The notes under the pieces were generated by a model. The model saw only the letters and a program-made list of their open reading frames with translations. It had not been told where the DNA came from and made no database searches. A program made the translations under genes and the position numbers. Shown piece by piece: positions 341-62,897 of a DNA stretch of 64,000 bases. Location of the stretch: positions 2,272,001-2,336,000 of the forward strand of contig OY970176.1 of the NCBI GenBank assembly GCA_963707955.1, written 5' to 3'. This DNA is from Candidatus Bathyarchaeota archaeon (lineage in GTDB: Archaea; Thermoproteota; Bathyarchaeia; Bathyarchaeales; Bathycorpusculaceae). Position 1 is the first letter of the stretch, and every line of letters begins with the position of its first letter.

Positions 341-765
341 CCCCTCACCCTCTACCATCTCTAGTTTCCACTTATAACATTTTGTATTCAACTAGAAGCA
401 TTAGTTTGGTAGTAATTTGGCACAACAACTCTGGGAATCCAATTTTCCCTTTCATTTCTCAAATATTTGGCAAACAGTAAAGCCTCTTCATTGATCAGAG
501 TTTCAATTTCCTGACGCTTACCCATCCTCACCCTTGAAACATCAACCTTGCTCTGGAAGAACGCGCGCTAAGCATTATTACACTAAAGGGATTTCCGCGT
601 GTCCAAGGCACAAGTTCTACATTCGGACCATACATCGGGAGAAACCTCGCACTCTACATTTCGAAGAATACCCGAAAGCCGAGCTTGAAGAGAACAGCAG
701 GTCTTCCACTGCGGAGTGGTACGGAAAGGATATAGCTGAACCATACGAGGTAGATTAGTGCAGGG

Positions 766-1542
766 ATGGGGAGAGGTTTGAGCGACGACGAGTCCGTTTG
801 CAAGCCGTCTGACGCCGTCAGTTATGCTGCCAAAAGCAAAAAGGTCTCGATAGAATCGCTAGGAATCCCTCAGCGCCTTGTATTGACTTACCAGAGAAGC
901 ACGTTTGAATGCGCAAGAAACCTGATCAAAGGCAAATGCGTCGAATGGCTTTATGGTGAAAGCCAGCCTTTCTGCGTTGGGCAGGTAGACGGCTTAGAAG
1001 TTGGAGTTGGTCGCTTCTGGATAGGAACTCCTGCTGCCGGTTTCACGTTGGAGGAAGCCATTGCATGCGGTGCAAAGACTGTTTTTGAAGTTGGCGTCTC
1101 AGGCGGAATCCAGTCTAACCTTCAACCAGGCGACATTGTTGTCGTAACCGGAGCGATTCGTGATGAGGGAACCTCGTACCATTATTTCCCACCAGAAGTG
1201 GAAGTTGAGTCCGACATTCCACTTAGAGACAAGCTGATTGAGCATCTGAAGGAGAAGAGAATCAGACATCTCATCGGTCCTGTCTGGTCGACTGATGGAG
1301 CTTACAGAGAAACCCGAGGAAAACTTGGAAAGTTCAAACAACGCGGAATCCTGACTGTCAATATGGAGACGTCTGCCGTTTTTGCCATTGCTAAATACAG
1401 GAATGTTAAGGCTGCTTCAGCGCAGGTCACCTCTGACATCTTGACTGAGAATGGGTGGCAGCTAGCTTTCGGAGACCAATCAATTAGAGAAAGCACAAAG
1501 GTCCTTTTGAAGGCTGTCATAGAGACTATTTCTGAAGAGTAG
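766..1542 (+). CDS. nucleoside phosphorylase (PNP/UDP family 1)
   Basis: GVSGG, IRDEGTSYHY, STDGAYRET and VNMETSAVF motifs. Confidence 0.9.
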   Translation: MGRGLSDDESVCKPSDAVSYAAKSKKVSIESLGIPQRLVLTYQRSTFECARNLIKGKCVEWLYGESQPFCVGQVDGLEVGVGRFWIGTPAAGFTLEEAIACGAKTVFEVGVSGGIQSNLQPGDIVVVTGAIRDEGTSYHYFPPEVEVESDIPLRDKLIEHLKEKRIRHLIGPVWSTDGAYRETRGKLGKFKQRGILTVNMETSAVFAIAKYRNVKAASAQVTSDILTENGWQLAFGDQSIRESTKVLLKAVIETISEE

Positions 1543-1590
1543 CGCGCGCAAAAACGTTAAGCGGTTTTTTCGTGGACCCGCTGCTTGTTC

Positions 1591-2295
1591 TTAAAGTTCT
1601 AAAGTCTGGGAAGCGTAGGGCGCAAGTATGATTACTTTTGTCTGCGGCATTTTCTCCTTTATCATGTTTTCGAATTTGTTGTATTGTCCTTTGGATCCGT
1701 GCATGACCACGACGACGTTTGGCTTTAATTCAGAGGCCATTTTGAAGGAGTTTTCGGGGGACGCCGTTCGAGACCATCGCCCTGTAGGCAGAAAAGCTAG
1801 TTGTGACTGATAATCCTTCACGGGCACGTATCCTGAGTCGCCCGCGTGGAACACGAGAAGGTTCCCCATTTTTACCTGGAAGAGCATTATTGGACCACTG
1901 TGAACTCCTTGAACGGCCTTTACGATGAGGTCTCCATAAGCGTACGTTTGACCGGACGTCGCACTTGTCAGCTTGTCGCCGGGGATTTTTCCTTTCAATT
2001 TGTTGGCGACTTTAGCCTCGGCCAATATAGGCGCTCCAGTCGTCTTGAAAAGTTTCAAAGTCTTGCCTTCACTGAAATGATCCATATGGCTGTGCGTGAA
2101 GAGCAGAAGGTTGACTTCTTTGAGGGCCGCGGCCTCGTCATCCTTCAAAAAGCCTGCCGCGTCGATCAGAACGCTTTGTTTCGAGGTTCTTGCGAGGATT
2201 CCTGAAGCCCCGAGGTACATAACGGCAATCTGGTTCTCAGAAAGCCCTAAAGCAAAAAATTTGCCGATTTCTTCAGCCTTGCTCTGTCTAAACAC
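1591..2295 (-). CDS. MBL-fold metallo-hydrolase (UlaG-like)
   Basis: THSHMDH metal-binding motif, HAGDSG, VVMHG. Confidence 0.85.
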   Translation of the reverse strand: MFRQSKAEEIGKFFALGLSENQIAVMYLGASGILARTSKQSVLIDAAGFLKDDEAAALKEVNLLLFTHSHMDHFSEGKTLKLFKTTGAPILAEAKVANKLKGKIPGDKLTSATSGQTYAYGDLIVKAVQGVHSGPIMLFQVKMGNLLVFHAGDSGYVPVKDYQSQLAFLPTGRWSRTASPENSFKMASELKPNVVVVMHGSKGQYNKFENMIKEKMPQTKVIILAPYASQTLEL

Positions 2296-2395
2296 AAATT
2301 ATCGCCATTCCTCTGTGGGAGCTACTTACTATAAATATCTTGACCGACCGGCTTGATAATCCTTGATAGGCTGAATTATCTGTATGGTAAACCGC

Positions 2396-60582: not shown

Positions 60583-61818
60583 GTGTGGCTTCGGTTGAGA
60601 ATTGCGTTTGTAGACTTGGATATGTCTCCGAGAACTGGATCGAGGCGTTTTACTTGTGAGGTGGCTAGTGAACTTCAGGCTATGGGTCATGAAGTTGGAA
60701 TTTTCACGTCTAGGCTGGATACTCAGAGATGTTTTAGACAGTGCTTATCTCTTCCTGTTGATGTCGCTTCGAGTCGTGGTTCCTCTCAAGAGGGAAGCGC
60801 AAGTGTGCTGACGAGGGCGATCAGGAAGTTCGGAAAAAATGCGATAATCAATCTTGCGAATAATTATGAATATGACTTGTTAGAGACCGATTTCGCTTTG
60901 AAGACGAGCGAAAAGATTGTGAGCATGGGATACGAAGCAGTTCTTTTTCAGTACCATGGGGAACATTGGCTTTTTCCAGTCTTCTATCACCTGAACGGAG
61001 CGAAAGGTGCCGTGTTTCTTAACATGGTTCCGCCGAGGCCTCGGTCGGAGGCTTTGCCTTTTCAGGAATCGACTCTGGAACGAAGGATTGTAGACAGGCT
61101 GGTCAGTCTGCCTTTTGTCCGTAGGTTTGAGAAAGTAAGCCTCAGAAACGTGGCTTTGTTTGTCACTCCGAGCGAGTTTCAGCTTCAGCAAGCGCGGGTG
61201 CAAGGTGTGATTGGGCAGAAGAAGGCTGCTGTTGTTCCGTTAGGAGTTGATCATTGCGAGTTTTGTCCGACGGGTGAAGAGGAGCCTTTTGCGCTTTATG
61301 TAGGGCGGATTCATCCTCATAAGTCGTTGGAACTGGCGATGATGTCCATGAAGAACATGGATTCAGACTATTCGCTGGTGATTGCTGGAGACGTTGACGA
61401 CGGTAACGTTGAGTATGTGGAGAGGCTTCTGAGTCTGGCTGAGGAGTTGAAAATCTCGGACAGGTTTGAACTGATTTTGCATCCGTCAGAAAGGCGGATT
61501 GTTAGGTTGATGCAGAGTTGTTCGGCTTTTTTGTTTCCAAGCACTATTGACACTTTTGGACTTGTGGTTCTTGAAGCTATGGCCTGTGGAAAACCAGTTG
61601 TGGCTTGCAACAGAGGAGGTGTTCCAGAGATAGTCGGAGACGCGGGATTCCTTATTGAGCCAGATCCAGTTCAGTGGGAGAAAGCCGCTACAAGACTGCT
61701 GTCAGATTCTGAGTTTCGGCACGCTATGGGACAAAAAGCATTGCAGCGATCCGAAGAGTATTCATGGAAACACACGACTTGCCGATTGCTCGAAGCTTTA
61801 GAAACCAAGTGTGCCTAG
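60583..61818 (+). CDS. glycosyltransferase family 4
   Basis: YVGRIHPHK, DTFGLVVLEAMACGKPVV, GGVPEIV. Confidence 0.9.
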   Translation: MWLRLRIAFVDLDMSPRTGSRRFTCEVASELQAMGHEVGIFTSRLDTQRCFRQCLSLPVDVASSRGSSQEGSASVLTRAIRKFGKNAIINLANNYEYDLLETDFALKTSEKIVSMGYEAVLFQYHGEHWLFPVFYHLNGAKGAVFLNMVPPRPRSEALPFQESTLERRIVDRLVSLPFVRRFEKVSLRNVALFVTPSEFQLQQARVQGVIGQKKAAVVPLGVDHCEFCPTGEEEPFALYVGRIHPHKSLELAMMSMKNMDSDYSLVIAGDVDDGNVEYVERLLSLAEELKISDRFELILHPSERRIVRLMQSCSAFLFPSTIDTFGLVVLEAMACGKPVVACNRGGVPEIVGDAGFLIEPDPVQWEKAATRLLSDSEFRHAMGQKALQRSEEYSWKHTTCRLLEALETKCA

Positions 61819-61850
61819 TTGATGCGTGCCCTTTTTGAAGGGCGCGCTAG

Positions 61851-62723
61851 TTGAGTGTGACGTTTGGCGGAGTGTCAGGTTTGCTTTCTGTTGTGATTCC
61901 GGCGCTTAACAGTGCGTCTACGATCGGTTTGACTCTTTCTTCGGTTTTTTCTAGTAGTTTTCCGCGGGAATTGTTCGAGGTGCTCGTGGTTGATAATGGG
62001 AGTTCCGATGGGACTGTGGAAGTGGCTCAGAGGTTTCCGGTGAGAGTGGAGCGTTGTGCTGAGAGAGGCATTGGGCCTCCTAGGAACGTTGGCATCAAGA
62101 TGGCCAGGGGAAGCATTGTTTGTTTGACGGATTCAGACTGCGTCGTCGAGGAGGATTGGCTGGGGAAGATTTGGGGTTTTTTCGAGAAGCATTCAGATGC
62201 GGATGGGGTGGGCGGGCCGGTTTTTCCTTATCCTGTTAGTCAGAACAAGATTCAGAGGCTGACGGGCGAGCTTTTTGTTGAAGATCAAGGATATCCGAGT
62301 AGCATCAGGAAGGTGCGGTTTGGCTCTATGAGCGGCATGATTTTCGGGTCTAACAGCGCGTACAAGAAGGATGCTGTTAGATCCGCAGGGGGTTACTCCG
62401 AGCCTGGGGGTTCAAACTTGGAGTCTGCGTGGAGACTCGCTTGTTTAAGACGGAATCTTTTTTTTGATCCTGAAATAAGAGTCAGTCACATTTTTCCGTC
62501 GAACCTCAAAGGCATTTTCAGGCAGCAGTTCAGGTGGGGAGCACAATCGACACATATGAAGCGAATGTATCACTTGGACAATAGGGCAAAGGAAATTGTC
62601 TTCATTTCTTGCTTTCTTGTTCGCCGTTTGCTTTCTCTGGTTTCTCCTGATGATAGGAAGCTGTTACACTTTTTCCAGATGGCAAGTTACAGCTTCGGTC
62701 GTGTCTATGGGCTTCGTTTGTGA
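61851..62723 (+). CDS. glycosyltransferase family 2
   Basis: SVVIPALN, VVDNGSSDGT, LTDSDC, QQFRWG. Confidence 0.9.
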   Translation: MSVTFGGVSGLLSVVIPALNSASTIGLTLSSVFSSSFPRELFEVLVVDNGSSDGTVEVAQRFPVRVERCAERGIGPPRNVGIKMARGSIVCLTDSDCVVEEDWLGKIWGFFEKHSDADGVGGPVFPYPVSQNKIQRLTGELFVEDQGYPSSIRKVRFGSMSGMIFGSNSAYKKDAVRSAGGYSEPGGSNLESAWRLACLRRNLFFDPEIRVSHIFPSNLKGIFRQQFRWGAQSTHMKRMYHLDNRAKEIVFISCFLVRRLLSLVSPDDRKLLHFFQMASYSFGRVYGLRL

Positions 62724-62897
62724 GATCGTGGGACATGGTATCTGAAACAAAGAAACGGTGTGAAACGCGACGATGACGGGCATAAGGCACGTAAAAAACA
62801 TAGTGAATGTCTCAGCTGCCTGAGGCCTATTGGTGTGCAAATCCTTCGCATATCTGGTGGCGCGCGCATACCTGCGCTGAATTAGGAAGTGAGTCTC

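Follow-up and report, generated by a model that had tools for sequence, protein, structure and literature searches.

The genome of the archaeon studied here (Candidatus Bathyarchaeota archaeon) carries between its genes a very large number of copies of a short GC-rich palindrome, consensus (T)A(GC)3-5T(A), which is specific to the genus and which we tentatively read as a preferred site of DNA breakage and insertion. The palindrome was noticed in a stretch of 64,000 nucleotides (hereafter the window, C1:2,272,001-2,336,000) of the source genome, G000, a single contig (C1) of 2,346,764 bp with 47.9% G+C. An insertion sequence (IS) of the IS5 family and its derived miniature inverted-repeat transposable elements (MITEs) demonstrably insert into the motif and leave a GC run on both sides, and the link between the motif and gene flux is significant but partial, extending to roughly a third of the junctions compared. 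A first-pass annotation of the window, made by a model from the DNA letters alone, had proposed a cassette system in which genes are joined at this palindrome by an integron-like recombinase. Its idea of a recurrent joint is supported by our comparisons; its integron-like recombinase system is not. In what follows G001-G010 are the other genus members, G016 and G040 are genomes outside the genus, and L100 and L102 are more distant genomes.

An iterated palindrome between genes

The palindrome field of the window is real. GCGCGC occurs there 74 times, against 13.52 +/- 4.09 (largest value 26) in 100 dinucleotide-preserving shuffles, and the 10-mer AGCGCGCGCT, with up to one mismatch, occurs 35 times where 1.86 +/- 1.61 are expected; the matches merge into 48 maximal alternating runs. 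At 40 of the 46 positions named in the first-pass annotation there is an exact run of at least three GC units within a few bases. Those at 21713, 23812 (with sites at 23799 and 23837) and 38945 are variants with one mismatch, and those at 9196, 17134 and 21503 lie more than one mismatch from the 10-mer, while exact runs at 3789, 5817, 23838, 25275, 28665, 28712 and 44782 were absent from its list. The contact with stop codons that it described is also found: TAG stops supply the opening G of the run at 1540-1542, 28164-28166 and 60280-60282, and at 26461-26463 a TGA adjoins the run. Among the window runs that overlap gene calls, three do so solely through a TAG stop. The block at 42.6-59.39 kb is, as had been claimed, nearly motif-free, with one run only (44782), which lies within a gene. 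That the motif is rare inside genes stands as a statement of density (0.15 per kb of gene calls against about 1.7 per kb of intergenic DNA), but there is no avoidance, coding GCGCGC being above synonymous shuffles. The sites are not an assembly artefact: they are bridged by independently assembled Logan contigs from four runs of one freshwater-sediment study, one of which may be the source sample. The contigs of all four runs show small consensus differences from the window, for example at 30,333-30,335.

What had been described as a system of this window extends over the whole genome, in which there are 989 maximal (GC)3-5 runs in 2.35 Mb (348, 186, 267, 130, 56 and 2 runs of lengths 6 to 11, respectively). 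By our own, crude gene calls (2393 genes; 82% coding, 18% non-coding), 705 of the 989 are intergenic and 284 are coding, against 810 coding runs expected by length. In a maximal-order Markov model no 6-mer is more over-represented than GCGCGC (z 22), and among 8-mers AGCGCGCG/CGCGCGCT ranks first. The enrichment proposed from the window thus holds when counted genome-wide, with 1081 intergenic GCGCGC against 92 under a first-order Markov model (about 12-fold); coding sequence has 352, against 232-267 in five synonymous-codon shuffles, an excess of 1.4-fold.

The runs have a strict form. A (72%) and T (41%) precede them, the mirror image follows, and the logo is flat beyond two bases on each side. 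Between genes the GC phase prevails, with 191 runs of (GC)3, 206 of (GC)4, 34 of (GC)5 and none of (GC)6 or more, against 29 of (CG)4. The possibility that the motif is part of a longer repeat or MITE was ruled out for about 95% of sites by the flat logo and by the finding of a single recurrent flank family (about 48 of 1410 flanks). The motif occurs in all four kinds of intergenic region, most often just past genes: 76 runs lie 0-9 bp and 53 lie 10-19 bp after a stop codon, 22 share the G of a TAG, and runs are scarce within 50 bp upstream of starts. Neighbouring runs are not spaced as fixed pairs (successive 50-bp bins contain 42, 49, 37 and 34 pairs). Along the genome the runs are overdispersed (index 3.75): there are hot spots at 375-400 kb, 800-875 kb and 1.65-1.70 Mb, and another spans the window.

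Within the genus the motif is general. AGCGCGCGCT is present 114 times in G000 (3 times for the same word written back to front) and is enriched in 10 of 10 other genus genomes, with 7-92 copies against 0-4 for controls. Beyond the genus, counts were made in 30 genomes that belong to other genera of the same family and order: 28 of these contain 0-1 copies, one contains 5 and one 9. The distribution of the 12-mer agrees with this picture.

Association with DNA that differs between species

When the window is compared with sister species, the block at 42,838-51,665 is the sole stretch collinear with G001 and G007, and window 1-42.8 kb is a non-syntenic patchwork in which single gene-sized segments match scattered sites on other contigs at 88-97% identity. 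The gene content of the patchwork, according to a Pfam scan, consists of accessory enzymes and transporters: purine/uridine phosphorylase-family, metallo-beta-lactamase-fold, isochorismatase, class IV aminotransferase, SnoaL-like and C1 peptidase genes; an amino-acid permease, an N-acetyltransferase, NosD beta-helix proteins, a radical SAM protein and an old yellow enzyme (OYE) reductase; and NUDIX, 2-hydroxyacid dehydrogenase, HerA-like ATPase and thermosome-paralogue genes. Homology boundaries in the window, counted by eye, have a run or a 1-mismatch variant within 15 bp in 9 of 17 cases in the window itself and in 11 of 17 in at least one genome, and beyond the motif the sequences are unrelated. 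At 8731, 10659 and 39384 homology ends at the motif's first base, and the relative has no motif there. The arrays that flank the conserved block in G001 (C5) and G007 (C3) contain some of the window units in a different order. The 25528-26463 unit has a second G000 copy near 999,115-1,000,052; the motif stands at its right end in the window, in G001, in G007 and in the second G000 copy, and a GC run lies near its left end in the window, G001 and G007 copies only. These homology boundaries bear out the view that the motif delimits gene-sized units found in other contexts in sister species.

The association is not limited to the window. Stretches of G007:C1 (400 kb) and G001:C1 (392 kb) were compared with G000. 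Where G000 is syntenic to G007:C1, intergenic DNA has 2.16 motifs per kb if it is unaligned and 0.56 if it is aligned, and coding DNA has 0.15-0.20; the motif is about four times denser in species-specific than in conserved intergenic DNA. The comparison yielded 90 collinear junctions, 44 of which were clean indels. The empty site carries the motif (at most one mismatch in 8, within 15 bp) in 14 of the 44 clean indels, compared with 5% of random intergenic positions; the motif lies at a boundary in 14 of 45 replacements, and an exact run is present, in one genome or more, at 6 of the 16 non-collinear joints. Among repeats within the genome, in families without the terminal inverted repeat (TIR) of the IS5-family transposon, the motif stands at the homology end of both copies at 30 of 952 ends, where 1.1 are expected, and some repeat copies end exactly at a motif that is absent from sister copies. 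The prediction that breakpoints map to the motif therefore holds genome-wide as an enrichment, at indel junctions and in species-specific DNA, but not as a rule: the motif is missing from most junctions, namely from 28 of the 44 clean indels and from 10 of the 16 non-collinear joints.

Empty and filled sites

The prediction of empty and filled sites is borne out by clean pairs that have one motif when empty and a motif on both sides when filled. In case A, G007 and G001 have a single (GC)4 where G000 has a 1.75 kb insert (1,559,002-1,560,753) between (GC)3 and (GC)4; the insert has ends resembling the TIR of the IS5-family transposon described below and a 284 aa open reading frame (ORF). In case c the single run, (GC)4.5, is in G000 (1,901,365) and G001 has a 2.2 kb TIR element between runs. 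In cases H and a, a repeat of 184-284 bp is inserted at the run. Further, one site (case 2) has three alleles, namely the motif only in G001, a 1.47 kb insert flanked on both sides by the same 1-mismatch variant in G000 (2,242,330-2,243,802), and a different, motif-free 2.4 kb insert at the same place in G007; half of the G000 insert is found elsewhere in G007 at 93% identity. The two cleanest insertions are, contrary to the cassette model, TIR-bearing elements of the IS5 family (with a DDE transposase) and not recombinase cassettes. Among 20 MITE loci searched for empty sites in relatives, only L052 and L061 were informative, and both are complex replacements.

Other insertions were seen in the same comparisons. 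About 18 kb before the window, G000 has at 2,251,983-2,253,520 a 1.5 kb element whose inverted ends measure 25 bp, whose target duplication is 9 bp long and whose longest ORF has 264 aa; it is absent from G001 and G007, and a similar TIR element lies at 1,285,088-1,286,304. A G000-specific insertion of 10.1 kb at 1,726,446-1,736,570, with an 11-12 bp overlap at the empty site in G001 and G007, is probably an integrated element. Similar insertions measure 13.4 kb, 17.3 kb and 3.5 kb.

An IS5-family transposon that inserts into the motif

About 3% of motif flanks start with a shared sequence, which is the TIR of a MITE/IS family. Its MITEs (roughly 20 of about 190 bp, plus variants; 41 ends) are scattered over G000. 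Assignment of the autonomous element to the IS5 family rests on a DDE_Tnp_1 domain with a DUF772 N-terminal domain, on TIRs and on the presence of the run on both sides of the insert. The G000 transposase is frameshifted (195 + 149 aa), and intact copies of 328-329 aa are present in G003 and G009. Every TIR end is bordered on its outside by (T)AGCGCGC; because the run is palindromic, a duplicated target and an element tip are not fully separable beside an insert.

TIR counts on both strands are 56 in G000, 83 in G001, 30 in G007 and 25 in G003. A reading of the motif as an IS/MITE byproduct in general was rejected, as TIR and transposase counts do not follow the motif and the 41 exact-TIR matches listed all lie outside the window.

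Features of the window

The coordinates of the units and motifs discussed are collected in Table 1.

Table 1. Motif sites, units and related features; positions refer to the window unless G000 is named
Feature	Position	Strand	Remarks
Field of 48 maximal (GC)3-5 runs, consensus (T)A(GC)nT(A)	561..62868	.	38 outside gene calls, 10 overlapping
Motif, left boundary of SnoaL-like unit	8196..8202	.	Homology to G001:C5 and G007:C3 begins; flanks beyond unrelated
SnoaL-like gene, 150 aa, unit ~540 bp	8207..8659	-	91-92% in variable arrays of G001 and G007
Motif, right boundary of SnoaL-like unit	8732..8739	.	In window and G001; missing at same nucleotide in G007
C1-like peptidase gene unit	9203..10615	-	93% to G009:C17 over 9205-10659 only
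Motif between permease stop and peptidase promoter region	10660..10668	.	Homology boundary
1-mismatch motif, left boundary of OYE flavin-reductase unit	23799..23808	.	Perfect 10-mer at same boundary in G007:C6
Perfect AGCGCGCGCT	25513..25522	.	6 bp outside left end of 0.95 kb unit
Unit with 299 aa ORF, no Pfam family	25528..26463	+	94% copies in G001:C3 and G007:C3
Perfect AGCGCGCGCT, right end of 299 aa ORF unit	26464..26473	.	Adjoins TGA stop
Perfect motif sharing the G of a TAG stop	28165..28174	.	Homology to G009:C16 and G007:C14 begins just past
Motif at truncation point in ~125 nt repeat copy	33542..33550	.	Sister copies continue without GC run
Motif variant, left boundary of HerA-like ATPase unit	36340..36349	.	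Unit 36348-38897, 93% to G007:C9
1-mismatch motif, left boundary of 350 bp segment shared with G007:C9	38945..38957	.	Further perfect run adjoins in G007:C9
(GC)5, left boundary of thermosome unit	39375..39384	.	Unit 39384-41431, 94% to G009:C13, motif-free there
Conserved syntenic block: HdrA/FlpD-like, CofD, CofE	42838..51665	.	91% to G001:C5 and G007:C3; one GC run, within gene
Motif adjoining end of ~200 bp repeat copy	59392..59400	.	Repeat has 22-23 copies
IS5-family insertion sequence, 1.09 kb	G000 389,077-390,162 (outside window)		DUF772 + DDE_Tnp_1, TIRs

Several further observations concern the window itself. The accessory units include an aminoglycoside 3-N-acetyltransferase family gene at 12,647-13,426 on the minus strand (Pfam Antibiotic_NAT, E 4e-51). 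The + strand is G-rich from 50,000 to 64,000, with a GC skew of +0.22 to +0.40 over 14 kb. The segment at 51,665-59,100, which encodes AMP-binding, glutamyl-tRNA reductase and class III aminotransferase genes, has no DNA match at E<=1e-30 in G001, G007 or G009 and may be a foreign or fast-evolving block. The nearest relatives of one window gene are in Bathyarchaeota/Bathyarchaeia metagenome-assembled genomes (MAGs) from peat and wetland.

Two repeat families are also present. One, of about 200 bp, lies at 51,250-51,435 and 59,181-59,390 and has 22-23 copies in the genome and further ones in relatives; it is C-rich, and its core, CCCTAGGG, is the second most over-represented 8-mer. The other, of about 125 nt, has five window copies, at 19,009-19,126 (minus strand), 32,310-32,399, 33,553-33,662, 38,769-38,901 and 42,716-42,847, and more in relatives; it contains two ACCC-N4-GGGT hairpin-like pieces and has no Rfam match even at E<=1. 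The window as a whole gave no tRNA or Rfam match.

A proposed breakage and insertion site, and the evidence against it

If the palindrome is a preferred site of breakage and insertion, each insertion that duplicates the run would add a new target, so that hot spots of insertion, window 1-42.8 kb among them, would expand into arrays in which the motif separates accessory genes. Segments that contain no transposon would be joined at breaks in or next to the motif, and fill-in at such joints would keep the run, while resection would lose it. TTAG...CTAA contains a stop codon on either strand, which would allow a joint to fall directly at the end of a gene. The most plausible candidate for the joining, in a role that we infer, is the complete Ku/LigD operon at G000 957,178-961,005, which encodes LigD_Prim-Pol, Ku, DNA_ligase_A_M/C with LigD_N (phosphoesterase), and DUF72. 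Ku/LigD-type end joining is uncommon in Archaea; besides G000, Ku was found in 7 of the 10 genus members and in 2 of the 30 genomes from outside. A bolder reading is gene capture, an integron function without integron parts, in which some activity would cut the 10-12 bp palindrome, any segment could be joined in either orientation with regeneration of the site, arrays of accessory genes would stack, and stops would be supplied on both strands. We regard this reading as quite improbable.

Many observations weigh against a breakage and insertion site, or at least limit its reach. Most junctions, as noted above, are motif-free, and 11 of the 28 motif-free indels have overlaps of 6-19 bp, as ordinary mobile elements typically do. 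In 12 of the 14 motif-bearing indels, an automatic check within +/-15 bp found no motif near the ends of the insert in the filled allele (both ends in 1, one end in 1, neither in 12), although by eye two more of the 14 (cases a and e) carry it at one end. At least one of the 14, case G, is a false loose match and was dropped. Case C has two differing "empty" boundaries, with a motif-like 11-mer in G007 that is foreign to both flanks and other boundaries in G010, which suggests deletions, one of them with motif-like filler. The enrichment of genome-internal repeat ends near the motif is largely due to the IS/MITE family. One conserved site is occupied in distant genus members by an alternating purine-pyrimidine palindrome from which the run differs solely by three CpG transitions, and thus some copies turn over by point mutation. 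Neighbouring runs are no more alike than chance (104 against 92.8 +/- 8.4 when shuffled, a test of low power), and therefore a general origin by target duplication is not supported; the idea that neighbouring runs are target-duplication twins was set aside on the same grounds. Further, the polarity of events rests on two or three close relatives and is unrooted, kin are not independent, and the crudeness of the gene calls applies here too.

The distribution of candidate enzymes counts on the same side. TIRs are at background in G004, G008 and G009 despite 39-82 copies of the 10-mer, the transposase was not found with this query in G002, G004, G005, G008 or G010, and genus genomes without a detected transposase or above-background TIRs still hold 7-82 copies. 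TIR and transposase thus do not track motif counts, and present transposon copies cannot explain the abundance of the motif. Since MAGs often lose IS copies, absence of the transposon is itself weak evidence. G002, G005 and G006, where the motif occurs at lower density, gave no Ku match, and the motif-free G016 and G040 did give one; the distribution of Ku does not match that of the motif, so that Ku would be at most a cofactor. Ku as the determinant of the motif was considered and rejected, its co-occurrence within the genus being striking with the 12-mer and weaker with 10-mer counts.

Alternative explanations

The motif could instead be a functional cis-element that is selected in spacers, serving either to mark gene ends or other boundaries or to bind a dimeric protein peculiar to the genus. 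Breakpoints would then coincide with it because it lies at the edge of constrained blocks and provides GC-rich, self-complementary microhomology for illegitimate joining. Much of the anatomy is what such an element would produce, including the sharp peak 0-20 bp past stops, the depletion in the 50 bp before starts, the presence in all four kinds of intergenic region and the strict phase and flanks (114 copies against 3 of the reversed word). The density in conserved intergenic DNA, at 0.56 per kb, is still about four times that of coding DNA, 37 of about 68 runs in aligned DNA are kept between G000 and G007, one site is kept as a palindrome across distant genus members, and many "motif only" alleles lie between two conserved blocks. 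A cis-element is a serious rival, but we nonetheless think it rather unlikely, given the four-fold higher density in DNA without a sister-species counterpart, the strong clustering in hot spots and the repeat copies truncated exactly at a motif missing from sister copies. The motif is also absent in ancestral spacers of more distant genomes: the permease-peptidase pair is adjacent in L100 and L102 too, with no motif between. No candidate for the binding protein was found. Nor does the motif resemble a terminator: it is too short for an RNA terminator hairpin and no T-run follows it.

Alternatively, the run might be the scar of a repair event or filler at a joint, formed as a transposon excision footprint (duplicated runs re-annealed in variable register) or by LigD polymerase fill-in of a self-complementary overhang, and would then mark past breaks. 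Within aligned DNA, however, motif turnover consists of point substitutions, with pure insertion of the motif in collinear sequence accounting for at most 3 of about 30 non-conserved sites in 330 kb, and in cases A and c the genomes without the insert have the run at the empty site. Across genomes Ku and the motif are not linked, and we know of no end-joining system that adds a fixed GC filler. These points make a scar improbable in our view, but it too is a serious rival, and several features fit it: GC-phase runs measure 6, 8 or 10 and stop abruptly at 10, "motif only" alleles face segments with motif-free ends (12 of 14), case C has its 11-mer and differing boundaries, truncated repeat copies are joined to unrelated DNA via the run, and the Ku/LigD operon is complete.

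The model of the first-pass annotation, a dedicated integron-like site-specific recombinase that exchanges cassettes at a symmetric site of 10-14 bp, seems to us very unlikely. Units between motifs do turn up again in other surroundings, in some cases in both orientations, three alleles exist at one site, the gene content is of accessory type, and nine tyrosine-recombinase (PF00589) matches occur elsewhere in G000, two of them at 847-854 kb beside the densest hot spot. Against these stand the absence of a recombinase among the 40 window ORFs scanned against Pfam (about 16 smaller ORFs lay outside the scan) and the absence of any Rfam family at gathering score in the window, hence of an attC match, with the qualification that Rfam was not confirmed to hold an attC model. 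Cassette ends are often motif-free, unit ends lie 0-20 bp from the run with no fixed crossover point, and 10-12 bp is shorter than any tyrosine-recombinase site that we know of. The contigs of the four runs, which cannot show rare forms, contain no excision or circular joints at motif sites; two joints that were found in them derive from the ~125-nt repeat.

Other candidate enzymes were sought as well. DDE_3 (IS630-type) was not found in G000, and Y1 transposase (PF01797) was found in 0 of 11 genus genomes and in 1 of 30 others. Multi-copy proteins were considered as transposases and rejected, their clusters being GNAT, TBP, Alba, glycosyltransferase and similar families. Near 870 kb, 1,416 kb and 1,664 kb, sets of 3-4 paralogues each of putative TATA-binding, Alba-like and glycosyltransferase proteins recur together in motif-rich regions.

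Finally, a palindrome made and kept by methylation-linked mismatch repair or by GCGCGC restriction-modification, as in the cyanobacterial HIP1, is extremely improbable: the motif is short, GC-rich and lineage-specific and its variants are often CpG transitions, but C5 cytosine methyltransferase (PF00145) was not found in G000 and in the genus only in G001 and G007 (2 of 10 genomes; N4 and N6 types were outside the search), and the excess is intergenic and only modest in genes, where HIP1 is common.

Comparison with known systems

Several known systems share features with the palindrome. Bacterial repetitive extragenic palindromes and the mosaic elements built from them (REP/BIME) are associated with REP-associated tyrosine (RAYT) transposases, and IS1397-type elements insert into REP palindromes. 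As in REP/BIME, there are hundreds of short GC-rich intergenic palindromes, often just past genes, which are lineage-specific and serve as landing sites for insertion sequences, and a TAG-like head adjoins the palindrome. The motif is, however, perfect and loop-less, at 10-14 bp with a core alternating run of 6-10 bp, whereas REP sequences are imperfect hairpins of 20-40 nt; no Y1/RAYT was found in the 11 genus genomes, the host is archaeal, and the tie to species-specific DNA is strong. Identity with RAYT/REP was therefore rejected on the lack of Y1 in the genus, of a loop and of fixed pairing. HIP1 (GCGATCGC) is an iterated, lineage-typical palindrome of 8-10 bp in cyanobacteria, first noticed at deletion borders, which is frequent in genes and is associated with orphan methyltransferases. 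Our motif is likewise short, highly iterated and typical of a lineage, and it differs in its intergenic excess and in the lack of a C5 methyltransferase in G000.

Neisseria dRS3 mosaic and Correia elements have a known user in a phage-borne recombinase. Like them, the palindrome is a short inverted repeat, marks the limits of variable intergenic segments, serves as a target of mobile DNA and lies at rearrangement points; unlike them, it has another sequence and length, and its only demonstrated user is the IS5-family DDE transposon. Elements of the IS5 family use short palindromic targets such as CTAG or YTAR, which are duplicated on insertion. The transposon described here conforms in its DUF772 and DDE_Tnp_1 domains, its TIRs, its derived MITEs and the palindromic target on both sides, and departs from the family in that the target is a GC run of 6-10 bp (not 2-4 bp), is iterated about 700 times and is abundant where the IS was not found.

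In integrons, attC sites are structured imperfect palindromes of about 55-140 nt at the 3' ends of cassettes. The window resembles integron arrays in having unrelated accessory genes divided by a recurring site, with the same units found elsewhere. It differs from them in the lack of an Rfam match and of an integrase in the 40 ORFs, in mixed orientation, in a site that is a perfect palindrome of 10-12 bp and in the many unit ends without a site. Archaeal integrons are defined, according to Ghaly et al. (2022; PMC9668308), by IntI together with structured attC. Our full-text literature search, with supplements outside its scope, found no report of this motif or of a lineage-specific iterated palindrome tied to structural variation in Archaea.

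Implications for Bathyarchaeia

Bathyarchaeia are abundant and uncultured, and how they take up and reshuffle accessory genes is largely unknown. The motif would offer a sequence handle on this process, with which insertion hot spots could be located in MAGs, contig breaks and mosaic islands could be explained, and the driver of gene flux, be it transposase, end joining or nuclease, could be sought by experiment. Should it prove instead to signal the ends of genes, Archaea would have in it a punctuation element of a new kind.

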